Shown piece by piece: positions 3,408 to 42,404 of a stretch of DNA of 64,000 nt. The stretch is from a virus (taxonomy: Duplodnaviria > Caudoviricetes). Each line of letters begins with the position of its first letter. Positions within the stretch are counted from its first letter, which is position 1. Below the pieces are notes generated by a model. That model made no database searches, was not told the origin of the DNA, and saw only the letters and a list, made by a program, of their open reading frames with translations. The stretch is from positions 9,570 through 73,569 of IMG/VR virus record IMGVR_UViG_3300042257_000126; one strand, given 5' to 3'. The translations under genes were made by a program, and so were the position numbers.

Positions 3408-3411
3408 CTTT

Positions 3412-3484: not shown

Positions 3485-3504
3485 CAACTTTTAAAATTTA
3501 TGTT

Positions 3505-6864: not shown

Positions 6865-7617
6865 TTATAATTGCTTCCACCCTGCCGGGTATGCATCCGG
6901 GCTCCAGGTGTTGTTATCAATCAGGCTTTCCCAGGTTTTGCCATTATACAGAACTTTTTCGCCGGTTTGGTAGGCATCATGTGCGCCAGTGGGTTGTACC
7001 CATTCGGTAATTTCGCCGGGTACACGGTATGCGGTATAGAGGCTTTTTGTGGTTTCGGGTAACCAATCTGCTTGTGAGGTGTGTGTCTGGATAACGCGAA
7101 AAAGCAGGCCGTCTTTTACGAATACTTCGTTGGCTTCGTAGTATTCGTTTATGCGCCACTTCGGGTAAATGGTGGCAAGGTCTGAAAGCTGCTGTTGGGT
7201 TACTGAATCACTTTCGAGTACATTTTTTGTAAGAATGCGGAGCAGGCGTTTCATGGCCATGATATCCATATCGATGTCTATGGCATCGAGAACAGCTTCT
7301 TTTTCGGCCTGTAATTCTTCCACTGTTTTATCCAGTACCGGGTAAGTAACGGCATCCATGTCCTGGTTGTAATACCGTTGGCCGAGTTTTTGGGTAGTTG
7401 GGTCATATTCCGGCACAATTACATCACGCCAACCGTCATTATAATGAATGCTATCATGTACATTTTTATACCCACCCCAATAAAAAGTGCCATCCTCGCA
7501 GGTAAACTTTTCTGGAATGCCGGTTTGGATAATTTCATTATTTTTTATTAATGCTTTCTGCTGGCTGAATGCCGTAACAGAAAGGAAAAGTGATAGTATT
7601 AAAAGTGTTGTTTTCAT
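6865..7617 (-). CDS. signal-peptide protein with C-terminal CBM5/12-like carbohydrate-binding modules
   Basis: MKTTLLILSLFLSVTAFS/Q; HTSQADWLP; WVQPTGAHDAYQTGEKVLYNGKTWESLIDNNTWSP. Confidence 0.75.
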   Translation of the reverse strand: MKTTLLILSLFLSVTAFSQQKALIKNNEIIQTGIPEKFTCEDGTFYWGGYKNVHDSIHYNDGWRDVIVPEYDPTTQKLGQRYYNQDMDAVTYPVLDKTVEELQAEKEAVLDAIDIDMDIMAMKRLLRILTKNVLESDSVTQQQLSDLATIYPKWRINEYYEANEVFVKDGLLFRVIQTHTSQADWLPETTKSLYTAYRVPGEITEWVQPTGAHDAYQTGEKVLYNGKTWESLIDNNTWSPDAYPAGWKQL

Positions 7618-7629
7618 GTTGTATAATTT

Positions 7630-8523
7630 TTAATAAGAATATTGTCTAAAATTATCACCTGTATAATCTTGAATAATGATTGTTCTTGAACCAGTATCTA
7701 TTTCAAAGTCCCACGGATAACTAATACCACTTGCCTGGTCATTTGTAACATACCTATACGACGAAATACCATATGGGATTCTTAAATTTGCATGATAAAG
7801 CATACCCGAAGTATATGTTGTGCAAAAAAAGTCACAGCCATTATTTATAAACTTTATTGAGGGAATATTACTAATTCCACCTGTTATGTAGGTTGTTAAA
7901 TCATCCATAGTATATAGTATAATATCGTATGTTGCACTTTCAATATCATAGGGAGTTGTTAGAACATACCTTAATACCCCAATAGTATTGTCTTGAATTA
8001 GTAAATGACTTCCGCTTTCAACAAAACTAAAAGTATATCCCAAGCTAAATTCGGTAAAATCAATATTTATTGCAGTTCCCTTTGTTGATAAGTCAAAGGG
8101 GGTTGATAAAACATATTTTTTAACATCATAGGTGCTGTTATATTCTAACATGTAAATCATAGTGCCGTCTGCACTAATTAATACATCCTGTGAGTTTTCT
8201 ATACCTGCTGATAATAAAGTTTGACTGTACACCATAGTACTTAAATCCCACGCTGTGGACATAGTATATTTATCAATATCATCTCCCGAGGAACCAGTTA
8301 AAAATAAAATCGTTCCATCCTCACTTATACAAGTCCCACGCCCAGTACTCTCTTGGGTTGAATAACCAAAAAAAGTACCCGTATAAGTCAATGTTGAATA
8401 ACCCACATTATCACCGCAACTTGCAGTTTGTATGCCCGGTATCTGAAATGCCCCAATGCTCGGCACCTGTCCATTACAGGCAAACGCAAAAAATAGACTG
8501 ATTAATAAAATTAGATTTTTCAT
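7630..8523 (-). CDS. signal-peptide beta-propeller-like protein
   Basis: MKNLILLISLFFAFACNG/Q; repeated Y-x-L-S-T-[AP]-[WFY]-D-[LI] blades. Confidence 0.7.
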   Translation of the reverse strand: MKNLILLISLFFAFACNGQVPSIGAFQIPGIQTASCGDNVGYSTLTYTGTFFGYSTQESTGRGTCISEDGTILFLTGSSGDDIDKYTMSTAWDLSTMVYSQTLLSAGIENSQDVLISADGTMIYMLEYNSTYDVKKYVLSTPFDLSTKGTAINIDFTEFSLGYTFSFVESGSHLLIQDNTIGVLRYVLTTPYDIESATYDIILYTMDDLTTYITGGISNIPSIKFINNGCDFFCTTYTSGMLYHANLRIPYGISSYRYVTNDQASGISYPWDFEIDTGSRTIIIQDYTGDNFRQYSY

Positions 8524-8524
8524 T

Positions 8525-11500
8525 TTAACTTGCCTCTTTAGTTATGGATACTGTGAAAATTGAACTTGAAATACAGTGAATGTACACGTAAAATGTACCA
8601 TCTTCCAATGTTGCCGAACCGTCCAGAATTTTAGCCGATGCTGGCCAGCTTATTGTTGCACCACTTAACGTGAGTACTACTGTTATACTTTTATTTACCT
8701 GATAATTTGAGAATGAAACAGTACCGCTTGAAGGCGTGCAGAAAATTATTCCGTTTGCCGAAAAGTCCCAAGTAAGGGTGTTGTTTGTGGTTGAACTTTT
8801 CAGTGTTTCATCCACATTGCCGTAATCAATTACATTATCTGCTACTGTTGCAGCAACCGAACCAGTGCCGCTTGCTGTAACTTCACCGGTTAATGCAGTA
8901 ATGCCATCGCCTCCTGAACTTAACCCGGCTATACTGTCTGAAATTTCTCCACGCATTTGGGTGTAAGTAGGAATAAGGGTTGTGTCAACTTTTAGCACAT
9001 TGCCGCTGGTTCCGTCGCCTGTTAGCGTAATGTCTGAGTTTACTACATCATTACCCCAGTTATCTCCACCAGTAAGGATTATATTATCAACTGTAGCATC
9101 AATTTCATCAATTGCTGCTTGTACATCAGTAGCAGTAAGATTACTTGTAGTATTTGTATATGATACTTCTGCTGCAGTTTGGTCGTCGGTGCCCGAATCG
9201 CCCCATCGTGTAGTGTCGGCCTCCGTAATTTCGGTTTTGCTCCAATATCTTGTGCTATCAACACCAATCTCCACACCACCATTACCACCTAAATAAGTAA
9301 GAGAAATTCCATCTCCTGCGACCATATTCAAAGTATCAATGTCTTGATCTACTCGAACGCTGTCAATTAACAAGTCAAATCCTTTTGGAATATATGGCTG
9401 TTTGGGGTCACCACTTGAAGTATAATCGCTATCGTAATAAACAAACGTAATAGCCGATTCTACTTTCGTAGCCCTTGTTAAAGCGTTGTTAACTACGTAC
9501 ACTTGTCTTTGCATAAACTGTTTTGGGTCTTCATCGTAGGCATGAAAATACACATAGCCCAAACCACCAACAATAACATTGACTCCTGTGTTAAACACAC
9601 TTATAGTTACAGGCTGTGCGTGTATATCATACACAAAATCGCTTATTGCTTGTTCGTAGGCGTAATCATCACTATACTCGATGGTATTATTCCGTGAAAC
9701 ATAAATACCCATATCTAATCTTGCTTTTACCGTTCCATAGTCTTCGCCTGCTATCGTAGAAACAATATTATACGACGTTGGTGTGGCCGACAATGGAGTT
9801 ACAGGTGTAGATTCAAGCGTTATAATAGCGTCTGTATTGCCCTCTAAAAACTCTCTCCCAGAAGGAACCAAATATGTCTTAAAATCGCTTCTGTAATTCA
9901 AACAATCGCCACTGCCTGCTGTTAGGTACGATGTGGATTCAAACACCTTAGTAACGTTGTTTTCGTCGTACACCCACCAATACGGGTCTGCTACACCAAA
10001 ACCATGATGTGCATCTTCTCCTAACGAACATGTGGTTGCTGTCCACGCATCATTGTCAAACCCCGAATGGTCTGACCTGATTTTCTTGTAATAGATTCTA
10101 TCGTTAACGTCACTATACAAAACTAAGTATTCATCACCATCAACAACGCTCGTAGCTGCTGTTATATCATAATTCGTTACAGTACTTCCGTAAAACACGG
10201 GTGTTGGACTTGCCGATGTCTTATTTATATAATACGCTTCTCCTCTTGATATAGCGTATATGCCATCACTTGCACCTATTAGCCACTGTATTTCGTTGTC
10301 TGCTGCTGGCAAAACAATGGTAGTATCGTTTTCTATGTCGTATCTATAAACAGATGTTCCACTGGCCGTCCAGATATAATTTTCCTCTGAGTATGATTTA
10401 TTAGCAGCCCAGTCAGCCGTTGGTGCATTACTTAAACTCAACGCTGTGCCTTCTGATATATCATAAGAATACAAATAACCCGAAAAAGCAATATAGGCAT
10501 CTGGTTCGTGAATAAACCTATCGAGCGCAGAAGCAATATGAACCCTTCCCGGACTTGCATAGCTCAATACTATGTTCTTTCCGGCAACTAAATTAAGCGT
10601 ATCTATGCTTGTTTCCTGCAAGGCATTATTTATAAATAAATCTACACTTGGATCAACATCGCTTAAAAAATCTTCTACGTGAAGTTTGTAATGAATCCCT
10701 GCGGAAGCATCATAAAAAGCAAACCAGTCCGCAGCATTATCAACTGTACTGACAAAGGCAGGCAACGATGGGATACTTACAGCCAAGTTTATATCATTTT
10801 CCATAGAACCACCACCTGTCAATCCAGTTCCTGCGGTTATTGTTTTTAATGCCAAGTCTAAATCAATGGTGCTATCACCTGACGCAAGATTGACAGTAAG
10901 CAAGTCCGTCAAAGAAGCAATTCCCCTAAAGTCGAGTATAGTGTCTGTTTTTTGTTCAAACACCCCCACGCCACGACTATTAACATTCCTCGCAAGGTTG
11001 GTTTCCCCAAAACCAGAAGGTAAATCCTGCCATACGGCAGTATCACCCGAAGCCACTAAGTACATTCCAGCCACAGCACCACCATTGTAGATGTTGGTAT
11101 GACTTAGGCTGTCTTTGTCTATAAAAATATACCCGTAAGTATTAATATCTCCCCCAACGTTCAAATCAAACGAATCTACCAATGCGGTATTTATGTGAAC
11201 CTTCGTGCCGTAATCTTCGTTGTTGTAAATATAGACACCATCGTTTAACCAATACCTTTCTAATCCTTCAAGGTCTAACACCTTCCACGTAAACTTAGCA
11301 TCCGAAGATACACGCATCCATTTATCGGTAGCTGATGGATTTTTGCTCCATGTTACAGAATCGGAACTGAACTCATGGTACGTCACATCTGTCAAATAAA
11401 CCGTTGTATCAGCCGACTTCATAAAATCCACGTCAACAATAAGTGAATCCTTAGCCCGTATTAAATTATCGTAATACCCAAATATGACTTGACTATTAGA

Positions 11501-11545
11501 AGCCACAGCCAAAAACATAAACGCTATAAAAAGTATTTTCTTCAT
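8525..11545 (-). CDS. tail-fibre/adhesin-like protein with signal peptide
   Basis: Start moved to MKKILFIAFMFLAVASNS/Q, downstream of a TATCTTTG box; fibre motifs ITAGTGLTGGG, TATDVQAAIDE, GITALTGEVTASG. Confidence 0.75.
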   Translation of the reverse strand: MKKILFIAFMFLAVASNSQVIFGYYDNLIRAKDSLIVDVDFMKSADTTVYLTDVTYHEFSSDSVTWSKNPSATDKWMRVSSDAKFTWKVLDLEGLERYWLNDGVYIYNNEDYGTKVHINTALVDSFDLNVGGDINTYGYIFIDKDSLSHTNIYNGGAVAGMYLVASGDTAVWQDLPSGFGETNLARNVNSRGVGVFEQKTDTILDFRGIASLTDLLTVNLASGDSTIDLDLALKTITAGTGLTGGGSMENDINLAVSIPSLPAFVSTVDNAADWFAFYDASAGIHYKLHVEDFLSDVDPSVDLFINNALQETSIDTLNLVAGKNIVLSYASPGRVHIASALDRFIHEPDAYIAFSGYLYSYDISEGTALSLSNAPTADWAANKSYSEENYIWTASGTSVYRYDIENDTTIVLPAADNEIQWLIGASDGIYAISRGEAYYINKTSASPTPVFYGSTVTNYDITAATSVVDGDEYLVLYSDVNDRIYYKKIRSDHSGFDNDAWTATTCSLGEDAHHGFGVADPYWWVYDENNVTKVFESTSYLTAGSGDCLNYRSDFKTYLVPSGREFLEGNTDAIITLESTPVTPLSATPTSYNIVSTIAGEDYGTVKARLDMGIYVSRNNTIEYSDDYAYEQAISDFVYDIHAQPVTISVFNTGVNVIVGGLGYVYFHAYDEDPKQFMQRQVYVVNNALTRATKVESAITFVYYDSDYTSSGDPKQPYIPKGFDLLIDSVRVDQDIDTLNMVAGDGISLTYLGGNGGVEIGVDSTRYWSKTEITEADTTRWGDSGTDDQTAAEVSYTNTTSNLTATDVQAAIDEIDATVDNIILTGGDNWGNDVVNSDITLTGDGTSGNVLKVDTTLIPTYTQMRGEISDSIAGLSSGGDGITALTGEVTASGTGSVAATVADNVIDYGNVDETLKSSTTNNTLTWDFSANGIIFCTPSSGTVSFSNYQVNKSITVVLTLSGATISWPASAKILDGSATLEDGTFYVYIHCISSSIFTVSITKEAS

Positions 11546-11573
11546 GTTTCTATTTTTAGCAAAGATACAACCT

Positions 11574-12056
11574 TTACACGAAGGATATATTTTTGCCTGT
11601 TTCAAACAGATACCACTCTGCTTCACGCCGCTTAACTAATCCGTTTAGCTTCACACCGCCTGCCGTAATGTAAGTTGACAACCACCAATCTTTTATGTTA
11701 CCCCTTTCATTTACCAACCTGAACAGCGTTTCCGATCCACCTGTATTGTAAGTATGTGAAACAAGTGCATCGAACTCATGTTGTTTCAGTCCTTTTGTGT
11801 TCTTGAGTACAATCGCTTCATACCGTGGCAGGTCTTTCTTCAACAACGCCTCGGCTTCTTCTTCTGTTATCGTCATTAGATTTGGGTACTTCTTTGCCAG
11901 TTCTTCAAGACTGCCTTTCCCAAGTGCGTGTCCGTATCCTACTGTCCACACGCCGGCAGGACAAAGTTTCGGTTGTAGCCCAATCTTCGTTAAGTCTCCG
12001 TCGTGGGTTCCCTCAAAAAATTTTATAAGCTGTACGCCGTTTTCGCTTGTTTTCAT
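11574..12056 (-). CDS. endolysin, GH24 lysozyme
   Basis: LIKFFEG...CPAGVWTVGYGH...FDALVSHTYNTG...LNGLVKRREAE. Confidence 0.93.
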   Translation of the reverse strand: MKTSENGVQLIKFFEGTHDGDLTKIGLQPKLCPAGVWTVGYGHALGKGSLEELAKKYPNLMTITEEEAEALLKKDLPRYEAIVLKNTKGLKQHEFDALVSHTYNTGGSETLFRLVNERGNIKDWWLSTYITAGGVKLNGLVKRREAEWYLFETGKNISFV

Positions 12057-12187
12057 GCGTTATTTTATTTGAGTGGTATATTTTATCGTTTGCGTAGAGA
12101 TCGTTGCTCAGATCGTCTTAAACGCCCTCTGACAGCAAAAAGGCTGCCGAAGTAGCCCTGAATGTTTCTAATAGTTCCAAAGGTGAA

Positions 12188-12877
12188 CTAAATCACATAC
12201 GGTTCCCAATACCTGTTATAAGGTATATCACCATCGGGTTTAGTTGTATTAGCATTTATTTTATTTATCCATAATCCATCTTCTAATGTCGGATAATGAA
12301 CAATAACGCCTGTTGCATAAGCATCATGCGCCCCGGTAGGTTGTACCCAAACCGGATAATCTTCTCCTGTATGTATTTTCGTCCATATTGCAGGAACTAA
12401 ATCAGGTGTTTGCCCTTCCACTGTCAAGGTTTGACCCGCTCCTGTAAATTCGTACTGTTCACCATTATATACTCGCTTCCATCCGGGTTTTACATACTCA
12501 TTTGGAATCCATTCTAAATCATCTGAATTTTCACGGAAATAAGTAAATAAAGTCGGTACAGTTTCCGGGTCAAAGTGTGCGTATTCTTCCCTATTGTGGT
12601 CTGAGGCAACAATTAACAAGTGCGAATAAGTTCCTTCATATCGGAAAATAGTACCCTTTGTAACCATGCCAGTTTCCGGTAATTCAACTATATCCTGAAC
12701 ATCACCGTTTGCCGCTTCAATCTTTACCTTTGCCTCTGACAAATCTTCATCTGACAAACAACGTTCAGGAATGATATAATTTCCGTCAGGTAGTGGGATA
12801 GGCTCAATTGCGCTATACTTGCCGTATCTGCCTTTAATTTGCTCGGCTTGTTGTGCTGAAATGATTATATGACTCAT
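12188..12877 (-). CDS. tail-associated protein with CBM5/12-like module
   Basis: WVQPTGAHDAYATG motif shared with 6865-7617; no signal peptide. Confidence 0.7.
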   Translation of the reverse strand: MSHIIISAQQAEQIKGRYGKYSAIEPIPLPDGNYIIPERCLSDEDLSEAKVKIEAANGDVQDIVELPETGMVTKGTIFRYEGTYSHLLIVASDHNREEYAHFDPETVPTLFTYFRENSDDLEWIPNEYVKPGWKRVYNGEQYEFTGAGQTLTVEGQTPDLVPAIWTKIHTGEDYPVWVQPTGAHDAYATGVIVHYPTLEDGLWINKINANTTKPDGDIPYNRYWEPYVI

Positions 12878-13749
12878 GATATTACTCCTTTCCCGTTAGA
12901 ATCCATGTAGGCTTCGAAGGCATCGCAAACAACATTGTTTTCTGCCGCAGTTAATGCTCGTGAAAAAAACGCAAAAGATATTTGTCGTTGCGAAAAAGCC
13001 AATGGTGTACCCCCATTGTTAGCAGAAAGCAAATACATTTCAAAGTCAGTCATCGCAATATCGGAATTATGTAGTTTTGTTCCCATTAGCGACTTATTAT
13101 TATATACTTTTATACTTCCAGAATCTATTCTGTTTGCCGTGAACAATCCTGTCGTGTTTGAATTGGTCACAAGACTGTCGGGTGCACCTGCTGATGTGCC
13201 ATTTATAATTGCTCTTATTGCATTGTCTGCAATCATACTAAGTCCGAACACATTTACCTTAGATGAAGATGAATCGCGTCCTCCAATTTCATACTGGTCT
13301 TTTCCTATAATATTTGTCCTCGAATAAACCCCCATCCCAGCATCATTTAAGGTAAAGTTTACATGATTAGAAAGGGGCTTGTAGTTACTTCTAATGTAAC
13401 TGTCTATAGCATTTCCTGCAAACCCTTCAAATGCTGTGAAGGCAGGAGAATTAACAGCCGTGGCGTGGTGAGCATTTTTAACAAGGTTTCGCAATCCTGC
13501 CTCTGCTGTTTCATTTCCAAGAACGTACATTACATCAAAAACATCCGACAAAGCATTTATGTTAAGTCCGGTTTTTAACGCCTTAATAAAGGTATCAAGT
13601 TTTATAACTTGTGCCGAAGAAAGTGGCGTTGTTAGTCCCGAAATGTAGGCTTCTATTTCAGGTGATAGGTTCAACTTTGAGCCAATGTGTGCGCCTTTCC
13701 CTATCACACGCCCTATCGTCTTATATAGTGGTCTTCCTATTGTTTTCAT
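12874..13749 (-). CDS. ConA/laminin-G-like lectin-fold tail protein (putative)
   Basis: Beta-rich; IKVYNNK...AFAFFSRALTAAE resembles a LamG C-terminus. Confidence 0.55.
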   Translation of the reverse strand: MKTIGRPLYKTIGRVIGKGAHIGSKLNLSPEIEAYISGLTTPLSSAQVIKLDTFIKALKTGLNINALSDVFDVMYVLGNETAEAGLRNLVKNAHHATAVNSPAFTAFEGFAGNAIDSYIRSNYKPLSNHVNFTLNDAGMGVYSRTNIIGKDQYEIGGRDSSSSKVNVFGLSMIADNAIRAIINGTSAGAPDSLVTNSNTTGLFTANRIDSGSIKVYNNKSLMGTKLHNSDIAMTDFEMYLLSANNGGTPLAFSQRQISFAFFSRALTAAENNVVCDAFEAYMDSNGKGVIS

Positions 13750-14135
13750 TAGTTGTCGTTGTCACCCGGTTTGATAATATACGCTACGTTGCCCGTTTCT
13801 GTGGTTCTCGTTAAACTAATCCGACACAAAACTCTACGCGGCACGTAGAACGATTCCACGGTTGCCGTATCCTTAACCAGTGTCCCTGTTATATCCGTGT
13901 CAGATGAATCTTTTGCTGTCGCCCAATTAGTTCCGTCTAAGCTAACCTGCAATGTCCACGTTACGCTGTCGCTAATGTCGTCTGAAAATAGTTGAAAAGT
14001 GAACTTCTCTGCTTTGTCTGCTTCTACATATCCGTCAGCCAGCGTGCCGTTTCTCAATGTCAGTTGTGGAATTATAGTATCGACTGCGACATCTACTGTT
14101 CCCTTGTACCGTGTGTTGTTTTCGTTGTATATCAT
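13749..14135 (-). CDS. small structural protein
   Basis: TLQVSLDGTNW motif common in phage virion proteins. Confidence 0.65.
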   Translation of the reverse strand: MIYNENNTRYKGTVDVAVDTIIPQLTLRNGTLADGYVEADKAEKFTFQLFSDDISDSVTWTLQVSLDGTNWATAKDSSDTDITGTLVKDTATVESFYVPRRVLCRISLTRTTETGNVAYIIKPGDNDN

Positions 14136-14201
14136 GTTCTATTTTTTTACAAATATATTACTATTATAGATTATTATCCAATAAGCCACACACACGTTTC
14201 A

Positions 14202-16550: not shown

Positions 16551-16555
16551 TATTT

Positions 16556-17143: not shown

Positions 17144-17648
17144 ACTGCAATATTTGTTTTAACAGGGCAAGCCTCGAAGTGAAATCCACGCGTTTCTGCA
17201 ACGTCGGGTCTTGATCTTCGATAGCGTCCATCTCCGCAACGAGCATGTGCGCTGTGTGAAGCACCCTGTCAATCCGAAAGTCAGGTGCATACACATCAAC
17301 GAATCCATGTTTACTGTAAACTTTTCCCTTAGCGGTCAGCGTGTACCCTATACCTGCTTTGTTGGACAGATAAGCATCACTATCCCCTGACAGTTCAAGT
17401 GAATAGAAATCGTCTGCCACGCTGCTGCCGATAACATCTGACACCGCCAAAGACACTTCTCCATCTGCTTTCAGCGTTGCCAGTTCACCCGCTGTGAGCG
17501 TGTAGGTATTGTCTGCCGTTGAAAGGTCGTCTGAGTAAAGGTTAACAACCATAGACGACACGCTGGTCAGGCTTGTGCTATCTGTTTGCTTAACGGTAAT
17601 TTCCGTCTGAGCCTTATTCTTTGAACATTTAATTTTAAAAGTTGCCAT
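17136..17648 (-). CDS. putative structural protein
   Basis: 170-aa coupled ORF in the late block. Confidence 0.65.
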   Translation of the reverse strand: MATFKIKCSKNKAQTEITVKQTDSTSLTSVSSMVVNLYSDDLSTADNTYTLTAGELATLKADGEVSLAVSDVIGSSVADDFYSLELSGDSDAYLSNKAGIGYTLTAKGKVYSKHGFVDVYAPDFRIDRVLHTAHMLVAEMDAIEDQDPTLQKRVDFTSRLALLKQILQYD

Positions 17649-18070
17649 TATTCTTTTACGCTTCTTGATTTGTAATTAAAAATCCTCAACAATCCTTCCT
17701 TAGTTTTTTCATTAAACGCCTTAGCTTCGTCAACATATCCAGCACGATCAAGTGCATCAGTTTGCCGGTCAACAACCTCCCCCAAACTCATAAGCAATTC
17801 CTGTTTTGTTGCAAAATCAGCATCCACAAGATTGTCAACGGTGTTCTTAATGGTAAAACCACCTATCACAAACGGAACAATCACCGTTATAAAAAATGTA
17901 ATGGCGATGTTCCTGAATACCGATAGTGTCTTTTCCATGTGGTTAATTCTTTTATCAAGCAAATCCTGATACAATGCAATCTGCTTTTCGTTTACCTCAG
18001 CCTGCTGTTTTAGTTTGCCAAATAGTTCTCTCGCTTCACTAATTAGTTTACTTAATTCTTCGTCATACAT
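17648..18070 (-). CDS. coiled-coil plus single-TM protein (holin-like candidate)
   Basis: Start moved to MYDEEL, downstream of TATCTTTG at 18089-18096; TM IAITFFITVIVPFVIGGF. Confidence 0.6.
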   Translation of the reverse strand: MYDEELSKLISEARELFGKLKQQAEVNEKQIALYQDLLDKRINHMEKTLSVFRNIAITFFITVIVPFVIGGFTIKNTVDNLVDADFATKQELLMSLGEVVDRQTDALDRAGYVDEAKAFNEKTKEGLLRIFNYKSRSVKE

Positions 18071-18116
18071 GGGCTGGTACTTTTCACACAAAGATACACA
18101 CTTAACCATGCTATAC

Positions 18117-18146
18117 AAAAAAAGCCCCACTTCAACAAGTGAGGCT
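18117..18146 (-). terminator. intrinsic terminator after the giant protein gene
   Basis: AGCCTCACT/AGTGGGGCT hairpin plus T7 on the minus strand. Confidence 0.75.
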
Positions 18147-18171
18147 ACAATCTCAAAACATTTTAATCAAA

Positions 18172-28502: not shown

Positions 28503-28504
28503 AA

Positions 28505-29269: not shown

Positions 29270-29270
29270 A

Positions 29271-29693
29271 TTATATTGTGTTAAATTTATACGCTACTCC
29301 ACCATCAACTTCATAAAACTTAACACCACCGTTCTTTTCAAAAAAACGAATAGCGTTATAGTTGTCACTCCACACGCAAATAAAAAACGAATATCCAAGC
29401 AATTCTCTTAATGCCTCCCAGAACAATTCCTTTTTATCGCGGTGTTCTACCTTTATTCCAAAAGACCTGACAACGCTTAATTCTTTATCAACAGCAACAA
29501 AACCATATTCGTCACCATAAGAATAAACTTCTACGTTACCAAATCCATCAAACAAAGAACTCATGGTGTGGCGAACAAGCCCGTCTAAAGTTTTATCGTC
29601 TCCGTGCCATCTTCTTAAATACAAATCTTCATCTGTACTAAACACGTTCCGAATAAGAACTTCTATTTCATCACCAAAGACTTGTTTCACCAT
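29271..29693 (-). CDS. GNAT-fold acetyltransferase-like protein
   Basis: SFGIKVEHR...VWSDNYNAIRFFEKNG; podovirus position just before the ejection genes. Confidence 0.7.
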   Translation of the reverse strand: MVKQVFGDEIEVLIRNVFSTDEDLYLRRWHGDDKTLDGLVRHTMSSLFDGFGNVEVYSYGDEYGFVAVDKELSVVRSFGIKVEHRDKKELFWEALRELLGYSFFICVWSDNYNAIRFFEKNGGVKFYEVDGGVAYKFNTI

Positions 29694-29731
29694 ATTTTTA
29701 ACACAAAGATACAATGTTAATGTATCGCAAT

Positions 29732-29766
29732 AAAAAAAGCCCCGTTACAAGAACGAGGCTAAAAAA
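29732..29766 (-). terminator. intrinsic terminator
   Basis: AGCCTCGT/ACGGGGCT hairpin plus T7 on the minus strand. Confidence 0.7.
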
Positions 29767-29812
29767 CCAAATGAATATGAAAAAATCTCCCACTACAAAT
29801 ATACAAAACAAA

Positions 29813-30172
29813 TCACAAACCGTCTTGATTCAACATAAATCCTTTTTTCTTGTCAAAATGAAGAACGTTATTATCATACACGTAACCAACACCATCAAAC
29901 GCGGCTCTACAAGCATCATTTTCATACAAAATATTAATATTGGGATAATAAACATAAACAATAACAAATTCATCTGTCATCCAAACAATAGGTTTAAAAT
30001 TTTTTATTGTTTTTGTATTCGTACAAACCCAAACAATCAAACCGCCTTTCGCATGTGGATATTCCAGAACCTTATCAAAATGCAATTTCCTTTTTGTCAA
30101 AAAATCAATGACTTTGTGCGTTGCTGTTGTCCTTTGGGGAATCATAAGACGATTGTCATTAATGTTATTCAT
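29813..30172 (-). CDS. moron-like hypothetical protein
   Basis: AT-rich ORF with its own TATATTTG box (30191-30198) and terminator. Confidence 0.6.
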   Translation of the reverse strand: MNNINDNRLMIPQRTTATHKVIDFLTKRKLHFDKVLEYPHAKGGLIVWVCTNTKTIKNFKPIVWMTDEFVIVYVYYPNINILYENDACRAAFDGVGYVYDNNVLHFDKKKGFMLNQDGL

Positions 30173-30256
30173 AATATTTTGTTTACATGACAAATATACA
30201 AAACAAATCCTCATCAACAAAACATTTTACAAATTATCAGCAAAATACTTTACAGA

Positions 30257-33200
30257 TTACCTGTTAACAGTAAATCCTGCCGTTGCTAATCGTAACTGAA
30301 ACTCAGTCGTTCCATCATCTTCAAACGTAATCTCAAAGTAACGACCCGTCATATCCACGCCTGAATGTATCAAACTTAAATCTTCTACGCCACCTGCCCT
30401 TAAAATATTGCTATACACAGCCGACGTGTAACCACCTTCTCTCAATCTAAACGATTCAGGGTACAACACAGTTTTTTGCCCTACCGTTCTTGTACTTGTA
30501 ACAGGCGAAGTAATTATAACGTTTGCCGCCCTGTTTGAATCCGTTTGAAGCGATCTGAGGCACTTTTCTTCGTTGGGGTAGGTATTTAATAGTCCAGTTA
30601 CAGAAAGTGGCTTAGAATCGCCAAAAAACACATTGTACGTCGTTCCTGACTCAAACTTCCATACATAACCAGATTTAAGCCCTATCGTCAGCGTATCCAA
30701 GTTGCCGTAACAATCAACAATGTTTCCAGATGAATCCGTGTAGTCCCTGCGTTCAGTCCAAACATTTGCACCTTCTTTAAAAACCCACGATTCAGCAGTC
30801 CCTCTTATATCAAATGTAATAACAAACTCATCGTTTTTTAAATCATAGTGCCCCAACACAACAACGCTTCTGCTATCAACGGATAACGCATCGTCAATGT
30901 CTCTTTTTATACGCAGAAACTCAGATTTCATGTTGTAATCAGAAATAGGTATCTGTCCGTTAGGAGATGAACGTATCACCTGACCCCTGTCGTTATCCCA
31001 ATAGTACAAATCACGATTGTTCTTTACGACACTCAACGGAAACCGTGTGCCATATTCTGTTTGCATAGGATAAACAGTACCGATAAACTCATTGGTGTTC
31101 ACAAGGCTCAACGTGCCGTCTGCATTGCTTATCTGCTGCTTGCCTATGTACATGGACGTTTCCTTGTTGTCCTGAATCACTTTCAACACATCACCAACCA
31201 ACTTAATACGCTGTATCTGTCCGTCTTTTTCATCTAACTGTTTTCTGTTGACAGCCGAAAAGAAAGATATTCCGTTTATTTTTGTGTTGTCTAAATAAGG
31301 TTCACTCCACACGAAATCCTGTAAGTTAACCTGACCTTGTGTGTCGAACTCTACAAGCACACGACCCCTGCTCCACGCACGAATACCGTCGTCAACATTT
31401 ATATAGAAATCTTCTACGGCCTCAGTGGTAGTTACTTTCTTCGGTTCCGTTTCAGAACCATTAAAATATTCAAACTTCCTTTCAACAAACCACGCATCAC
31501 CCTCTCCTACATATCCGGTTGTCGTATTAAACCCTGTTGCCGAAGTATCGTAGGTTGTGAAATCTTCGTAGTAGATTAGATTTTCAACTTCTGACTTCGG
31601 TCTGTATATGTACGCCACAGAATCAAGGTAATCAGCAACGGCTTCTTCGCCTTTTGGAAGTATCAACCAAAACCCTGAGTATTCTGTTCCACTTACATCA
31701 ATCAATGTACGTGTTCCAATTATAGTTTTTACTATCGTAGTTATTTCTGAACCCGAATCTTTTTCAAGTTGAACGTAATCTCCTTTGGCAAACTCATAGC
31801 TCAGATTCTCAGGAAGCCGAATGGCTATCACTTGTTTGCCGTCAATAAACACATCATCAAACGCGTTTTCACCTGCTGTGTTCCCCGTAACAAACGGATA
31901 CACACCTGCAAAGTTCACCGACTCTGTAACAGCAAACCTGAACCTCGTAGCCCAACTTGGTACGGTCGGACTGTTCAGCGTGAATTTTATCCTTGCTCTT
32001 TTATTTCTGTCTGCGTAATCTCTTTCACCGTTGGACGGAATGTAAATACGCTGTGGACTTAACACGCCCGATGTTCGGCTTCTTTCATCATAAAACACAC
32101 CGCCTACGTTATAATAGCTTCCAGACTTATATGTGGCAACCCCTTCTGGCACTGTTTCAACAGTAAACTGAGAACCACGTGTTCCTGCTCTTGTTTTATA
32201 AGACCCATCGGTCACTCCGGGTGCATCTCCACCAGAAGCACTATAACACCCAACAACTGCTAACGTAATATCATATCCACCATAGTCAGCAACTCCTTGT
32301 ATCAAATAATCCGTACCATACAAGGCCGTGGCAGTTTCAAGGTCTGTTGATATAAATTCTGCATTATTATTTATGTCATTAATAATTGCGTTCTTAATAT
32401 CAATTTGTGTATCACCATCCGCAACAATATAAGAAAAAGAATATCCGAGCATGAAATTATAACGCAATGAACTCCAGTATTGCTCATAAGACCGAGACAA
32501 ACCAACATTAATCACAGTTCCAACAACCGGCACATCAGGAACATTAAAAGAAACATAAAACATATTCATTCCCGCATCAACCCCATACGTTGAATCCAAA
32601 TCAGAAGAATTTCCACTAACATAAACATCAGCATACTCCACCTCAACAGAAAAATTAAAATCTGTCTTATCGTACCCTTTTGTTACATTTGCCAATCCTA
32701 TCCTATTCTGAACAGCAACAACGGTCTTTGCTTTCAACGGCACATCGCTGTACAACGCCAACGCTTTATCTATCGGTATAAACTCTCTGGCTCTATCATT
32801 GTAAAACGAAATAGTCCTGCTTGTTTCGGTAGATGCTTTGTCGTACTCATCAACTTTAAACCAACTTCCCGTGTTACCCTCTCTTGCCAATAAAACAACA
32901 GACTGAACATCTGTACCACCTAAACCATAGGACACAGACAAATAATTACCAATGTAGTTGTCTTCATAGGTATTATCTTCTGCTGAAAACACGGACGTAC
33001 TCACCGCTACCTTGCTGTAAGGCGACAGAACAGAGTACGTGTAATCATTATAAACAAAATAGGTAGCAAACTGAAAGGTCTTTCCTATTAATTTGTTTAT
33101 TTTTCTCGAAGAATCACTTCCTACAACGAACTCAGGTGCATCAACGGGGTGCTTGCGTGCTAATTGAATAGAATCAGATGTTACAGACGACAACGAGCCA

Positions 33201-33646
33201 GATCCTACACGGGAACTGCCGTTTCCAACACGAATTTTGCGTGGTGGATTTAAACCATCCGTAAACACACACCAATCACCCATAAAAGCAGCATCAACTA
33301 AATATTCAGGATTGAAATTAAGAACACCGCTCTGAACACCTAAATTAATAACGCTATTTCCGGTAAACAAATAAATACCGTCGTTGCCATTGGAATTATA
33401 GTTAAACAACACGCCGATTTCTCGTTCCTTATCTTCTGCATATCCTACAAAAATATTAGTTCCAGAAGGTAGATTTGCATTCACGGAAACCATGCTCGGT
33501 ATCGACACATTAACACCAACACGCCCCCCATCAGCCGAATGTACCCTGCAATTCTGCCTGCTCAAAACCTCTCCCCTTGCCGTGTCTATCAACAATGGGT
33601 GTACGTCCTTATTTATCCCGCCGTTCATCGGCATTAATGCTTTCAT
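30257..33646 (-). CDS. tail stabilisation/nozzle protein (crAss-like muzzle; P22 gp10-like)
   Basis: GGINKD, FTDGLNPPRKI, NRIGLANVTKGYD, YYWDNDRG; size and synteny fit. Confidence 0.8.
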   Translation of the reverse strand: MKALMPMNGGINKDVHPLLIDTARGEVLSRQNCRVHSADGGRVGVNVSIPSMVSVNANLPSGTNIFVGYAEDKEREIGVLFNYNSNGNDGIYLFTGNSVINLGVQSGVLNFNPEYLVDAAFMGDWCVFTDGLNPPRKIRVGNGSSRVGSGSLSSVTSDSIQLARKHPVDAPEFVVGSDSSRKINKLIGKTFQFATYFVYNDYTYSVLSPYSKVAVSTSVFSAEDNTYEDNYIGNYLSVSYGLGGTDVQSVVLLAREGNTGSWFKVDEYDKASTETSRTISFYNDRAREFIPIDKALALYSDVPLKAKTVVAVQNRIGLANVTKGYDKTDFNFSVEVEYADVYVSGNSSDLDSTYGVDAGMNMFYVSFNVPDVPVVGTVINVGLSRSYEQYWSSLRYNFMLGYSFSYIVADGDTQIDIKNAIINDINNNAEFISTDLETATALYGTDYLIQGVADYGGYDITLAVVGCYSASGGDAPGVTDGSYKTRAGTRGSQFTVETVPEGVATYKSGSYYNVGGVFYDERSRTSGVLSPQRIYIPSNGERDYADRNKRARIKFTLNSPTVPSWATRFRFAVTESVNFAGVYPFVTGNTAGENAFDDVFIDGKQVIAIRLPENLSYEFAKGDYVQLEKDSGSEITTIVKTIIGTRTLIDVSGTEYSGFWLILPKGEEAVADYLDSVAYIYRPKSEVENLIYYEDFTTYDTSATGFNTTTGYVGEGDAWFVERKFEYFNGSETEPKKVTTTEAVEDFYINVDDGIRAWSRGRVLVEFDTQGQVNLQDFVWSEPYLDNTKINGISFFSAVNRKQLDEKDGQIQRIKLVGDVLKVIQDNKETSMYIGKQQISNADGTLSLVNTNEFIGTVYPMQTEYGTRFPLSVVKNNRDLYYWDNDRGQVIRSSPNGQIPISDYNMKSEFLRIKRDIDDALSVDSRSVVVLGHYDLKNDEFVITFDIRGTAESWVFKEGANVWTERRDYTDSSGNIVDCYGNLDTLTIGLKSGYVWKFESGTTYNVFFGDSKPLSVTGLLNTYPNEEKCLRSLQTDSNRAANVIITSPVTSTRTVGQKTVLYPESFRLREGGYTSAVYSNILRAGGVEDLSLIHSGVDMTGRYFEITFEDDGTTEFQLRLATAGFTVNR

Positions 33647-34383
33647 AATCTCCTTACATTTTGAGATGAAGTTTCCATTATCATATCCGCTAATTCATCC
33701 AACGACGGTAAATTCAGCGCATCGTACATATTCACCTCTTCCCTGTAATTTTCTTTCTTATCTGCTATGTAGAAACGACTATATTTGTCGGGTCTTGATT
33801 CCACCAATTTATATTCAATATACGAAATCAAAAGGTTAGCGGCTTCGTTTGGAATATAGGTCGTATCCAAATCGTCAACACCCGTCGAAACATATCTAAC
33901 CAAAACCTCACTTCTGTCAGCAAATCTCGTCCGGTCAACAGCTAACCTGCCTAAAACTATCCTACGTTTATTTGGCTCGTCTTTATAATAATACTCAACA
34001 TTTGACCCTTTAGTCCCATACCCGTCTGTCGGTGTGCGTTCAAGTGAATCATCTTCTTCCCTGTCAGTATCAAACACCGCATCTATCGGACTTGATATGG
34101 GTGAAATCATCTTATCAGACCGCGTGAAAGTAAACAACTCTTTATTTACAGATACACCAACGGTAATAACCCTCATTACATCTTCTGGATAATTTACAGT
34201 GTTTATAGCAGTTATTGGCAGCCACGCTTCCTTTACGCACCCGGCTTCGTGAAACAGTTTAAAAGTCCTGAACCCTCTAAGAAAGTACATCGCTGCCTCG
34301 TTATAATACTTGCGTTCAAAATCCTGAACACCCGCAAGCGATTCATCTATTATCTGATTTGCTGTATAAAACCCTTTCATCAC
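33643..34383 (-). CDS. tail ring/adaptor protein
   Basis: INTVNYPED motif; lies between the capsid and nozzle genes. Confidence 0.65.
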   Translation of the reverse strand: MMKGFYTANQIIDESLAGVQDFERKYYNEAAMYFLRGFRTFKLFHEAGCVKEAWLPITAINTVNYPEDVMRVITVGVSVNKELFTFTRSDKMISPISSPIDAVFDTDREEDDSLERTPTDGYGTKGSNVEYYYKDEPNKRRIVLGRLAVDRTRFADRSEVLVRYVSTGVDDLDTTYIPNEAANLLISYIEYKLVESRPDKYSRFYIADKKENYREEVNMYDALNLPSLDELADMIMETSSQNVRRL

Positions 34384-34997
34384 TGATTATTGTTAGTTTT
34401 ATCTTGGTACACGCCTGCCATCCAAGCTAATGTCAATTCCATTATCCCGTCAATCCTACCGCCGGGTACTCTGATTTCTTCATCATCGTCATACGCTGAA
34501 AACGCCCTGACAATTCCATAATCAACAGTTCTTACGTCAGTAAACGGACTGTTGCCTATTTCTTCAAATATTATCTGTATGTTATCTGAAATGTTTCCTA
34601 ATCTCCAATAGGTTTCGTTTATTACTTTGCCAACAGGGAGGTTTCTGAAAAACGCGACACTTGGCCTGCGTGCCTGTGAAAACGGCTTGCCACCACCCGA
34701 AGGCTGAACGTACCACACCCCTCTACCTTCACCAACGGGAACAACAGCATCGGACACACCAACGTATCTGTACCCGCTGGACTTATACACAGGTTGATTG
34801 TAATAGTGCTTAACAAAGTATTGTTCTACTTGCAATTTGCCATCTTCATTCATTGGCATCTGTCCCAACAAAGTGTCAAACGCATACCCAACACCCTGTT
34901 CAACCCGTTTGAAGTGTACGGTCTTTTGGTTGTCTGCTACTGCTTCACTTTTTAATATGGCAGTACGAACAAATTCAACTAATGCTTTTTTATTCAT
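34380..34997 (-). CDS. tail ring/adaptor protein
   Basis: Synteny and coupled ORF. Confidence 0.6.
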   Translation of the reverse strand: MNKKALVEFVRTAILKSEAVADNQKTVHFKRVEQGVGYAFDTLLGQMPMNEDGKLQVEQYFVKHYYNQPVYKSSGYRYVGVSDAVVPVGEGRGVWYVQPSGGGKPFSQARRPSVAFFRNLPVGKVINETYWRLGNISDNIQIIFEEIGNSPFTDVRTVDYGIVRAFSAYDDDEEIRVPGGRIDGIMELTLAWMAGVYQDKTNNNQ

Positions 34998-35673
34998 TGC
35001 TTACCCTTTCCCCTAAAGCTACAACATCCTGCCGTTCTATATTTGTTCCTGCGTCCCTTAAAATACGATACGCGATCTCCACAAGCTGTTCATCGTACCA
35101 CTCAGGCGTAGAACTGTTCACCGAATCAAATTCTTCTAACAACGTTGTTGAGTTCGTTGTGGTTTGTATAACAGCGTCGTCCGGTTGCTTGTAATACGTT
35201 ATGCTGATTGAAGTAATAGTACTTGGGTAAATAGCTATTGAATTTGCCCCTGTCCACACAAACGCCGGATCATCAGTAGTTGGTGCAACAACAGCACTTC
35301 CAATCCTGTCTGCCAGTTCATCAGGTTCTAATTCATCAAACCCCCTACCCGTTACTGTTGTAGGATTGATAGCAACCAAATATCCCAATGTTTCATCCAA
35401 ATTTGTAAAACTGAACGCACCACCTGTTATTGTTTTTGTTTCCCTTCGAAGAAACGGTCTTAGTTCCTGTGAAATCTTTCTGGACACGCCAACACCCCTG
35501 CGTGCTATCGGTGCATTTAACTGATATTCGTTTGGAAGTCCTAACTTCTCTGCAAACAGCATGTGACTGTTAGCATTAAACAACGACTGAAACTCTGCTG
35601 CCGTGAAAGCACGACCGTTCAAGTCCTTGTTTAAAACCGTGTTGACTATATTGATTACATCACCGTATGTCAT
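34990..35673 (-). CDS. tail tubular/ring protein
   Basis: LNKDLNG...TAAEF and YYKQP motifs as in crAss-like ring proteins. Confidence 0.7.
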   Translation of the reverse strand: MTYGDVINIVNTVLNKDLNGRAFTAAEFQSLFNANSHMLFAEKLGLPNEYQLNAPIARRGVGVSRKISQELRPFLRRETKTITGGAFSFTNLDETLGYLVAINPTTVTGRGFDELEPDELADRIGSAVVAPTTDDPAFVWTGANSIAIYPSTITSISITYYKQPDDAVIQTTTNSTTLLEEFDSVNSSTPEWYDEQLVEIAYRILRDAGTNIERQDVVALGERVSNE

Positions 35674-35718
35674 CGTATCTTATTTTAACACAAAGATACG
35701 CATGAAAGGGTACAACAC

Positions 35719-35749
35719 AAAAAAAGCCCCACTCCAACGAGCAGGGCTT
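35719..35749 (-). terminator. intrinsic terminator
   Basis: AAGCCC/GGGCTT hairpin plus a T tract on the minus strand. Confidence 0.6.
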
Positions 35750-35768
35750 GCACTACGAGAAGAAACTA

Positions 35769-36803
35769 CTATGCAGACTTGGGCTGATATTCCAATTCCA
35801 TATATTCACACAATTTTTTCAATAAATCTTCTTTCTTGTCGCTGTTCGTGGTTGTCAACCCCCTGTCGTTTGCCATTCGCATTAACGTCGGTCGATCTAA
35901 CTCACGTAAGTCGTCAAGATTATAACTTTCATCTTCACCCATAGCTGCAAACAATCGACTCTTAATGTTAGAGTTGTTAATCACCTCCTGAATGAACACT
36001 TCGTTTCTGTCCTCAATTTCATCTGACTTGAATCCCATCAGCTTCTCAGCATATTCACGTCCTTCTTTCAACCACATGGCTCTGTCTTTATAGCCAACAA
36101 TGCCATCCTGAATAGCCCTGCGTGCAACAAACGCTGCCTTGCGCTTTTGGTTACCTTCTGTCAGTTCTTCAAATTTCTCAAAGTTAATAAACCTGTCTTT
36201 TCGTTTCTGTCCGTCAAGGATAGTATTATACAGGTCTAAACGCACTTCATCAATACTACGACGCTCTACGTCCTTAACACCAAAAATCTCTGCTGCCTGT
36301 TTGATGAGTGTTTTGTCTTTGGCAATGGGTGATGTTTTACCCATGATCATGTACTTAATGTCAGCATCACTTGACATTACCTCAATTTGTTTCTTGGCTT
36401 CTTCTTCCAAGTTCTCAATCACAATACGTCCTGAACGAACTGCGGATGCCTTGTATTCCAAGAACCACACAAACTCAATGTCCTTTTCAGTATAGAACGT
36501 TTTCCACGTCACAAACCTGTGGTGGTCGTCGTATTCACGCTGACCGTTCTTAATTCGTGGTCTGCTTTTTGAATACCGCCACACACCGTCAGGGCTTGTT
36601 AGCTCAATCGGGAACTTCTTCAAAACACCAAATGTTCTGAAATCTCCTTCCGGTCGTCCCTTCGGATAAATGAGTGTTACTTTTCCTAATGTGTTTGGTG
36701 AGAAATACTTGGCCTGAATTTTTTCCATCTCCTTCTTGACCTGCATGTCAATGTCAGATCGCCCATGTTTCCAATTAACTTCTTCGTCTAAATAGAAAAT
36801 CAT
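35769..36803 (-). CDS. hypothetical protein with C-terminal Rho-N/HeH-like motif
   Basis: LRELDRPTLMRMANDRGL...KKEDLLKKL; downstream of the MCP gene. Confidence 0.65.
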   Translation of the reverse strand: MIFYLDEEVNWKHGRSDIDMQVKKEMEKIQAKYFSPNTLGKVTLIYPKGRPEGDFRTFGVLKKFPIELTSPDGVWRYSKSRPRIKNGQREYDDHHRFVTWKTFYTEKDIEFVWFLEYKASAVRSGRIVIENLEEEAKKQIEVMSSDADIKYMIMGKTSPIAKDKTLIKQAAEIFGVKDVERRSIDEVRLDLYNTILDGQKRKDRFINFEKFEELTEGNQKRKAAFVARRAIQDGIVGYKDRAMWLKEGREYAEKLMGFKSDEIEDRNEVFIQEVINNSNIKSRLFAAMGEDESYNLDDLRELDRPTLMRMANDRGLTTTNSDKKEDLLKKLCEYMELEYQPKSA

Positions 36804-36828
36804 ATCTGCATATTTTAGTTTCTTCTAC

Positions 36829-36860
36829 AAAAAAATGGAAGGGGGACTAAGCCCCCTATC
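36829..36860 (-). terminator. terminator after the capsid operon
   Basis: AGGGGG/CCCCCT hairpin plus a T tract on the minus strand. Confidence 0.65.
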
Positions 36861-37367
36861 CTATTTCACAAGTTTAATCTCTAATTCCTTCAATAGTGAG
36901 TTCTGCGTGCTGTCTGTTTCAGCTTCTACATAAAATCTGTAAAAGCGATACGGCTGAACAGTTGTGGAATTCACGTACAGAGAAGTATCTGCGCCTGTAA
37001 TACTCGTTACCGAGGCAGTATCAATTCCTGTCCATGAATCATCCCAGAACGTCTTGCCTTGCAAGATAGCACTAAACGCGGCTTCACCACTTACTGTATC
37101 TACTTTAAAACGCGTGTACACAGCTAATTTGTCATACAAATTGTCAATGGCAAAGGTGTACGCAAAAGTAGAATCAGCTACGCTGGATAACGTATCGGCA
37201 GAAGAAAAATACTTATGCCAATAGGTTACAGGTGTTGCAAGCAAATTACCTTTCACATCCAGAACAACATCAACGTCGTTCTTGTGATTGGTAATGTTGT
37301 CAATAGTCTGTCCGTAGCTAATAACTGCGAACAGCAACGATGTCAATATGAAAGCTATTCTTTTCAT
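36861..37367 (-). CDS. signal-peptide protein coupled to the major capsid gene
   Basis: MKRIAFILTSLLFAVISYG/Q; TAATG overlap with the MCP stop codon. Confidence 0.75.
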   Translation of the reverse strand: MKRIAFILTSLLFAVISYGQTIDNITNHKNDVDVVLDVKGNLLATPVTYWHKYFSSADTLSSVADSTFAYTFAIDNLYDKLAVYTRFKVDTVSGEAAFSAILQGKTFWDDSWTGIDTASVTSITGADTSLYVNSTTVQPYRFYRFYVEAETDSTQNSLLKELEIKLVK

Positions 37368-42358: not shown

Positions 42359-42404
42359 CTACGTCTAATTTTGAAACAAAGATACACACAAGACACTAAG
42401 GCAT

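Follow-up and report, generated by a model that had tools for sequence, protein, structure and literature searches.

Why should the late genes of a tailed phage, including fibre-like genes and one coupled to the capsid gene, encode proteins with signal peptides? Tailed-phage virions are taken to assemble wholly in the cytoplasm, and phage signal peptides are usually tied to lysis proteins, exclusion proteins or cargo genes. The question is raised by a stretch of 64,000 nucleotides, here called the window, which comprises bases 9570-73569 of the 73,569-bp virus record IMGVR_UViG_3300042257_000126 (IMG/VR), i.e. most of a 73.6-kb podovirus genome. The phage is a virulent, marine-type podovirus of a Bacteroidota host and distant kin of phages of Flavobacteriia. 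Its minus strand, from about 47,800 down to 6,100, forms a single tightly packed late block, and five proteins encoded therein begin with predicted Sec/signal peptidase I (SPI) signal peptides ending before glutamine. These five, named SP782, SP1006, SP297, SP250 and SP168 after their lengths in amino acids (aa), appear to be exported to the periplasm, where SP782, SP1006 and SP168 in addition seem to be glycosylated by the host; whether they end up in virions is weighed below.

Signal peptides ending before glutamine

All five N-termini are present in the translations of the minus strand, with starts at 7617, 8523, 11545, 16550 and 37367 (Table 1). Each of them combines one or two Lys/Arg residues with an uncharged hydrophobic stretch of 12-14 residues, which is too short for a membrane helix, small residues at positions -3 and -1, and Gln at +1 of the predicted cleavage site; a signal-peptide-like (SP-like) N-terminus with Gln at +1 is called SP-Gln in the following. 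The SP168 gene overlaps the stop codon of the capsid gene by one base (TAATG), while SP782, SP1006, SP297 and SP250 are separated from their preceding genes by 1, 5, 12 and 28 bases among them, so that all five genes belong to late operons. The SP1006 frame stays open for 27 codons further upstream, to a GTG at 11626, and since this extension overlaps the end of the endolysin gene, the ATG at 11545 is the plausible start.

Signal peptides were called with a crude, purpose-written rule-based detector (charged n-region, h-region of about 7-15 residues, small residues at -3/-1). It flags 8 of the 128 genes called greedily in the whole 73.6-kb genome, and in six of these the -3/-1 site is followed by Gln, namely in the five late genes and in a gene for a 111-aa protein of the non-structural early block, which lies outside the original finding. 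Eight of 264 shadow open reading frames (ORFs) are flagged as well, none of them with Gln at +1.

Homologues retain the same features. A HMMER scan of 1.84 billion representatives with SP782 gave 606 matches at E <= 0.001, of which 21 align from the N-terminus. A complete SP-like N-terminus is found in 19 of these 21, the records of the other two beginning inside the hydrophobic stretch, and Gln stands just before a conserved (G)xxER motif in all 21, while the signal-peptide sequences themselves are unlike. For SP168, a profile search yielded 47 further family members; 43 are SP-like by script, and the other four comprise three truncated proteins and one with an N-terminal extension. Gln occupies +1 in 38 of the 47 by script and in four more by eye, with P0190 lacking it. 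Among seven SP1006 homologues, four are flagged SP-Gln (P0006, P0007, P0008 and P0012), P0009 is SP-Gln by eye if its called N-terminal extension is disregarded, P0011 is SP-like but lacks Gln at that position, and P0010 has no signal peptide. The genomic context of P0010, sought in IMG/VR, amounted to a short shared fibre motif in unrelated contigs. In the related genomes G004 and G005, the SP1006 homologues are likewise SP-Gln.

Signal-peptide properties, not sequences, are thus conserved together with the Gln, and export with cleavage before Gln is the only simple reading; we consider it very probable that the proteins are indeed exported and cleaved. Translations, detector and homologues in this way bear out the earlier note on this DNA, which had pointed to Sec signal peptides ending before Gln on five late proteins, and the retention of both features in divergent homologues with drifting signal-peptide sequences supports the Sec export that it had deduced. 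In the cultured distant relatives phi38:1, elemoF and Gundel_1, small SP-like proteins occur outside the structural block only and none is found among the large late proteins, so that the trait marks the present clade.

Sequons for host O-glycosylation

According to a review of the general O-glycosylation system of Bacteroidota (PMC12871550), modification takes place in the periplasm and is restricted to non-cytoplasmic proteins, on Ser or Thr that follows Asp and precedes a mostly hydrophobic residue, and Glu is not tolerated in place of Asp in B. fragilis. Occurrences of the corresponding sequon, D[ST][AILVMT], were counted against shuffles of each mature protein. The earlier note had described such sequons as abundant in the two fibres, and the counts agree: 26 are observed in SP782 (6.7 +/- 2.4 expected) and 15 in SP1006 (7.8 +/- 2.5), to which SP168 adds 5 (1.3 +/- 1.1), while all signal-less proteins of this per-protein count lie near or below expectation. 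Pooling of the six signal proteins gives 49 sequons against 18.7 expected (Poisson P ~4e-9), compared with 14 against 18.9 for the reversed motif and 8 against 7.5 for E[ST]h. The 67 other ORFs of at least 100 aa together hold 37 against 45.9. Enrichment is hence confined to signal-bearing proteins and absent from the others.

The same pattern extends to relatives. The three late signal proteins of the complete relative G004 have 36, 21 and 4 sequons against 9.9, 6.2 and 1.4 expected. Among 159 retrieved homologues, the 50 SP-Gln proteins reach an observed/expected ratio of 1.65 and the 14 other SP-like proteins one of 1.49, compared with 1.01 in the 95 signal-less proteins. Of 11 sequon columns shared with the single signal-less SP1006 homologue, 3 have a sequon in it. 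In the 45-sequence alignment of SP168, the residues that are invariant or conserved to at least 90% are Q20, D58, D90, S91, G94, T124, D127 and T128, among which Q20 follows the cleavage site and D58, D90/S91 and D127/T128 are sequon residues. Of 19 members of the SP782 family, 12-19 retain the sequon columns 59, 117, 128, 142, 153, 326 and 356. From these motifs, O-glycosylation of SP782, SP1006 and SP168 in the periplasm appears probable.

The fibre-like proteins and the capsid-linked protein

Besides internal repeats, SP782 has an N-terminal domain of about 355 aa that is conserved and a C-terminal one that also occurs in other phage proteins. Within its family, these N-terminal residues are kept, including an invariant Cys72 and Cys103, and are followed by complete divergence in length (281-2003 aa) and C-terminal content. 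The first ~80 residues of SP1006 are homologous to those of SP782 (37% identity). Neither protein gave a match among the PHROG, Pfam, NCBIfam or PDB sequence families. The family consensus of both contains HxH (HTH.L) and DV..DGQ.L.WN motifs, which we take to be typical of phage fibres, and two of nine proteins sharing C-terminal modules match tail-fibre PHROGs. A conserved N-terminus combined with exchangeable distal domains and a location in the tail module, as in fibres or receptor-binding proteins, is thus found for SP782 and SP1006, and it is by gene position and architecture that they are labelled putative virion fibres. When 185,579 species genomes were scanned for members of the SP782 family, one match (60% identity over residues 2-325) was obtained, on L021, a 21-kb contig binned into a Thermoplasmata archaeon metagenome-assembled genome; almost certainly, this is a misbinned phage contig, and it yields no host or prophage information.

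The capsid proteins of five related genomes (G001-G005) are 46-66% identical to the capsid candidate of the window, which had no tblastn match in deposited phage genomes. Directly after the capsid gene, an SP-Gln homologue of SP168 (159-164 aa, 33-37% identity) is encoded in five of five related contigs, two of which are identical over the stretch examined. A first AlphaFold2 (AF2) model of SP168, built from 5 near-identical sequences, was unusable (predicted local distance difference test, pLDDT, 37.9) and was replaced by a model from 45 sequences (pLDDT 85.8), in which the signal helix is followed by a jelly-roll beta-sandwich resembling carbohydrate-binding modules (CBMs). Its fold matches are generic and include CBMs, the birnavirus VP2 projection domain, the subtilisin C-terminal domain and phage tail domains; the best VIA match reaches Z 9.7 (root-mean-square deviation 2.7-3.2 over 100-120 aligned residues, with unrelated proteins), Foldseek TM scores are 0.3-0.5, and the best ESM Atlas score of 0.88 belongs to unnamed clusters. 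Prediction of a complex between the capsid protein and mature SP168 scored 0.00, which makes no call either way. Decoration proteins are encoded by small genes beside the capsid gene and co-expressed with it, and SP168 shares both traits, judging from the TAATG overlap and the five contigs; as a capsid decoration protein, it is a candidate by gene position and architecture.

The remaining two proteins differ in kind. SP297 may be an SPI substrate with Gln at +1 (CNG/Q) or may carry a weak lipobox at FA/C, both being equally possible; FAFA/C is a poor match to what we take to be the usual lipobox consensus. SP297 matched nothing in Pfam, PHROG or NCBIfam, and its ESM Atlas features lead to viral SGL/lactonase-like propeller clusters (score 0.95), a lead by which it may be a lactonase/SGL-like beta-propeller. 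The C-terminal part of SP250 is paralogous to a signal-less, CBM5/12-like 229-aa protein (12188-12877). No homologue of SP297 or SP250 was present among the ORFs called in the relatives examined, and both may be secreted in an accessory role, outside the mechanism to which the other three belong.

Where the exported proteins may act

Assembly of the virion from parts made in two compartments is proposed as follows. The five proteins would be synthesized as preproteins with Sec/SPI signal peptides, cross to the periplasm and be cut before Gln, which would be cyclised to pyroglutamate (pyroGlu) according to the Q-rule of the host. At least SP782, SP1006 and SP168 would then be O-glycosylated on D-[ST]-hydrophobic sequons by the general periplasmic system of the host. 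SP782 and SP1006 would be the receptor-binding fibres and SP168 a small carbohydrate-binding-like beta-sandwich on the head. Maturation of all three would take place in the periplasm, where pyroGlu, glycans and, in SP782, possibly a Cys72-Cys103 disulfide would protect them. Capsid-tail particles would be assembled in the cytoplasm, and docking of the three proteins onto them would have to await the rupture of the envelope by holin and endolysin. A virion role is favoured by the fixed places of these genes in the head and tail modules, the coupling to the capsid gene, the architecture of conserved N-terminus and variable C-terminus, and the N-terminal module common to both fibres. On balance, attachment of the proteins to virions after lysis seems to us as probable as its opposite, and the entire sequence of export, Q-rule cleavage, glycosylation and docking of fibres and SP168 at lysis is given an even chance. 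More tentatively, a whole clade of Bacteroidota tailed phages might build its virions from two compartments, with heads and tails made in the cytoplasm and Sec-secreted, pyroGlu-capped, host-glycan-coated fibres and a head-surface protein joining them at lysis.

A number of observations weigh against this proposal. The signal-peptide calls rest on our own crude rule and not on SignalP. With respect to the periplasmic glycosylation suggested in the earlier note, the Asp- and orientation-specific enrichment argues for it in SP782, SP1006 and SP168, but SP250 and SP297 are not enriched (2 sequons against 0.8 expected and 0 against 2.0, respectively). Twelve of the 26 SP782 sequons lie in three internal-repeat copies (392-453, 522-549) and are therefore not independent and could be partly structural. 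The members of a family are related, so that pooled counts, such as the 176 sequons against 47.8 expected in the 47 further SP168-family members (reversed motif, 47 against 48.2), do not represent independent events. In the modules that signal-bearing proteins share with SP782, sequons are not enriched and, if anything, depleted (24 against 48.7 in the middle module, 3 against 15.1 in the C-terminal one), and the same modules of signal-less proteins hold 196 against 223.5 and 5 against 12.3; without enrichment within modules, the sequon excess is a property of particular domains and not of every exported protein. Searches of the SP168 model against the PDB with Foldseek, BFVD and VIA wide gave generic jelly-roll matches and no specific decoration protein. 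Furthermore, tblastn of SP168, SP782 and SP1006 against 50,697 phage records found no match, so that no isolate with a proteome carries homologues. Signal-less fibre-like candidates exist, at 12188-13749 in the window and as 726-aa and 598-aa proteins in G004, and the phage may accordingly not need exported proteins for adsorption. Finally, a precedent for two-compartment assembly of tailed-phage parts was neither found in the literature nor is one known to us.

Part of this evidence suits a second explanation, in which the proteins are exported but are no virion parts, being active instead in the envelope or periplasm of infected cells or, once lysis has released them, as free soluble factors. 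They might then exclude superinfection, mask or destroy receptors and so keep progeny from sticking to debris, serve as a free depolymerase or adhesin, or help to break down the outer membrane or cell wall. Export is well supported, unlike virion membership; the existence of signal-less fibre candidates points the same way, as do the position of SP1006, SP297 and SP250 next to the endolysin and a protein with one transmembrane helix, the CBM5/12 module on SP250, and the lack of SP297 and SP250 homologues among the called ORFs of relatives, as would be expected of accessory genes. Q-rule proteins of Porphyromonas gingivalis phages are, moreover, read as host-surface modifiers in PMC10367356. 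However, it is a hallmark of virion-anchored proteins that the N-terminal domain is conserved and the C-terminal domains are swapped, and free copies of a receptor-binding protein would be competitors in the adsorption of the phage itself. Translation of SP168 is coupled to that of the capsid gene, and the fibre gene and SP168 are strictly placed in the structural operon, after the giant protein and at the capsid gene, respectively, across genomes whose capsid proteins are 46-66% identical. We therefore regard action outside the virion as a serious but rather unlikely explanation.

Improbable, in our view, is that the hydrophobic N-termini are not cleaved as signal peptides at all, but arose by chance or serve as membrane anchors or phage-protease-removed segments that hold virion parts at the inner membrane. 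Cleavage is a prediction here, and signal-peptide predictions for capsid proteins of P. gingivalis phages are ascribed to prohead protease cleavage in PMC10367356. Yet 12-14 residues do not suffice for a membrane helix, nearly all homologues retain the small residues at -3/-1 and the Gln at +1, none of the SP-like shadow ORFs has this Gln, and sequon enrichment is sensible only for proteins that reach the periplasm. Display on the surface of the infected cell, through the type IX secretion system (T9SS) or as surface lipoproteins, or loading into outer-membrane vesicles is very improbable: although the host phylum moves many Sec substrates on to the surface, Cys16 of SP297 follows FAFA in a possible weak lipobox, and the gene after the SP1006 homologue in contig L011 (4022-4846, plus strand, 274 aa) encodes a lipoprotein-like hydrophobic N-terminus ending in LSTSC/Q, four of the five proteins have no Cys near the cleavage site, and profile searches (Pfam E <= 0.1, NCBIfam E <= 5) detected neither a T9SS C-terminal sorting domain (Por_Secre_tail or type B) nor another secretion domain on any of the five, so that they were rejected as T9SS cargo. 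The alternative offered in the earlier note, remodelling of the infected cell envelope or surface, has hence become less likely as far as surface display is concerned.

If SP782, SP1006 and SP168 are virion parts, as proposed here, they would disclose a new assembly route in which some components of a tailed virus reach their mature form beyond the cytoplasm, and a free virion built from two compartments would wear host-type glycans on its most exposed parts. It would be the first phage to use the general O-glycosylation system of Bacteroidota, with consequences for virion stability, recognition by grazers or immune systems, host-range engineering and the annotation of Bacteroidota phages, where possession of a signal peptide is often taken to exclude a structural role. 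If they are not, they would be late effectors that are secreted and built like receptor-binding proteins; such a set, large and conserved, is likewise undescribed.

Genome context

Sequence matches of the portal and the 1129-aa protein reach only distant relatives at 21-26% identity, i.e. Flavobacterium elemo phages, Cellulophaga phages phi38:1 and Calle (Pervagoviridae), Tenacibaculum phage Gundel_1 and a Maribacter phage; judged from these distant relatives, the host is most likely a member of Flavobacteriia. Relatives encode homologues of the giant protein (2508-2769 aa) at the corresponding position, and comparable giant proteins of the elemo and phi38:1 groups are annotated as structural.

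Table 1 Features of the window discussed in the text (window coordinates; signal peptides and their cleavage sites are predicted)
Feature	Positions	Strand	Family match and remarks
tRNA-Met(CAT) and tRNA-Thr(TGT)	3335-3485	+	adjacent
111-aa protein	5063-5398	+	sixth SP-Gln protein, MRTLLLFLLLSWGATA/Q; non-structural early block; flagged by detector
Two small genes, 106 aa and 142 aa	6104-6852	-	close the late block; 106 aa with one N-terminal transmembrane helix, holin-/spanin-like; 142 aa soluble
SP250, 250 aa	6865-7617	-	signal peptide MKTTLLILSLFLSVTAFS/Q; C-terminal CBM5/12 carbohydrate-binding module; PF02839 E 6.9e-11; phrog_18593, 30034, 27545
SP297, 297 aa	7630-8523	-	N-terminus MKNLILLISLFFAFACNG/Q
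SP1006, 1006 aa	8525-11545	-	fibre-like; signal peptide residues 1-18, MKKILFIAFMFLAVASNS/Q
Endolysin	11574-12056	-	GH24 phage lysozyme without signal peptide; PF00959 E 6.9e-25; phrog_7 E 1.3e-37
Three signal-less genes, 128, 291 and 229 aa	12188-14135	-	between SP782 and endolysin
SP782, 782 aa	14202-16550	-	fibre-like; signal peptide residues 1-19, MKKLWILFILVMVTVVTNA/Q
Two conserved signal-less genes, 195 aa and 170 aa	16556-17648	-	always directly before the SP782-type fibre gene; same order in L007, L008, L009, L010, G004
160-aa protein	17648-18130	-	one central hydrophobic helix, NIAITFFITVIVPFVIGGFTI, between coiled-coil-like halves
Giant protein, 2882 aa	18172-26820	-	phrog_9880 (unknown function); HEIAH (HExxH) metallopeptidase-like motif
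1129-aa tail protein	late block	-	phrog_14478
Head-tail genes	late block, after capsid candidate	-	
SP168, 168 aa	36861-37367	-	signal peptide residues 1-19, MKRIAFILTSLLFAVISYG/Q; mature beta-sandwich of ~149 aa
Major capsid protein candidate, 475 aa	37367-38794	-	without signal peptide; phrog_13704 virion structural protein, E 9e-12; between scaffold-like gene and SP168
Scaffold-like gene	late block, between portal and capsid gene	-	
Portal	39968-42358	-	phrog_6547
Large terminase	44686-46998	-	phrog_6681
230-aa protein	48456-49148	-	GroES-like C-terminal part; phrog_3188

The order giant protein, 160-aa, 170-aa and 195-aa protein, signal-bearing fibre recurs in four IMG/VR contigs and in G004, a complete relative of 80 kb; L007, L008 and L009 keep the 160-aa gene between giant protein and fibre module, a place at which none was detected in L010 and G004. 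The 195-aa and 170-aa proteins, for which no family match was obtained, are candidate docking or assembly partners of the fibre. The 160-aa protein could span the membrane and so connect particles in the cytoplasm with fibres in the periplasm, or it could serve in lysis. In L011, the SP1006 homologue is preceded by homologues of the 291-aa and 229-aa genes, and the 128-, 291- and 229-aa proteins are possible cytoplasmic fibre or adaptor parts. The endolysin gene lies immediately upstream of SP1006, within the fibre region; the 106-aa and 142-aa proteins at the end of the block had no family match, and no clear spanin pair was found.

Small SP-Gln proteins are encoded in non-structural regions of phi38:1 (gp052), Gundel_1 (gp051) and G004 (127 aa), too. 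The early 111-aa protein of the window showed no significant similarity to the one of Gundel_1 (E 0.17), and their assignment to the same family is unsupported. At 42001-44000, in the interval between portal and terminase, the G+C content falls to 0.33, compared with about 0.40-0.44 around it, and only small ORFs on the opposite strand are present. GroES- and GroEL-like chaperonins are encoded by relatives as well.

Comparison with known systems

SP782 and SP1006 resemble the tail fibres and tailspikes of podoviruses in their conserved N-terminus and variable C-terminus, their fibre-type motifs and the C-terminal modules shared with tail-fibre-PHROG proteins, and SP168 resembles small head decoration proteins as a small beta-sandwich encoded beside the capsid gene, whereas the two fibre-like proteins themselves gave no match in the PHROG, Pfam and PDB sequence families. 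To our knowledge, known fibres and decoration proteins have no signal peptides. Virion proteins that bear glycans or are made with signal peptides do exist in other phages: mycobacteriophage virions are glycosylated by phage glycosyltransferases in the cytoplasm, and filamentous phages, whose coat proteins are Sec-dependent, are assembled at the membrane and do not lyse the cell. The present phage, which is of head-tail type and has a portal and a terminase, would instead borrow the periplasmic machinery of its host. A literature search returned nothing on signal peptides or host O-glycosylation of tailed-phage fibres or capsid-linked proteins, although supplementary prediction tables could hold some.

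Host substrates of the Bacteroidetes Q-rule for Sec/SPI (PMC5837995, PMC10653852) share with the five proteins the charged n-region, the h-region of 12-14 residues, the small residues at -3/-1 and the Gln at +1, all kept in homologues; the difference is that these are genes of a virulent phage, placed in a structural late operon and encoding fibre-like and capsid-coupled proteins, with cleavage and cyclisation predicted. Matrishin et al. 2023 (PMC10367356) report five Q-rule genes of unknown function in P. gingivalis prophages and read them as host-modifying cargo. Those proteins, too, are phage-encoded and predicted for the host Sec/SPI pathway with Gln at +1, but they belong to temperate phages, while the present ones are encoded in the conserved core of a virulent clade, within its head and fibre modules, and carry glycosylation sequons. 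With the general O-glycosylation system, the predicted non-cytoplasmic proteins of the window have the same three-residue motif in common, specific for Asp and for orientation; its known substrates are cellular, the word 'phage' does not occur in the text of the review (PMC12871550), and modification of the phage proteins is deduced from sequons. Phage-encoded Sec/SPI substrates as such are already known. New, as far as the literature search goes, is the occurrence of these signals on fibre-like and capsid-linked proteins: a whole clade keeps Sec/SPI signals, the Gln rule of its host and host sequons on proteins that are fibre-like by position and architecture and on one that is linked to the capsid.

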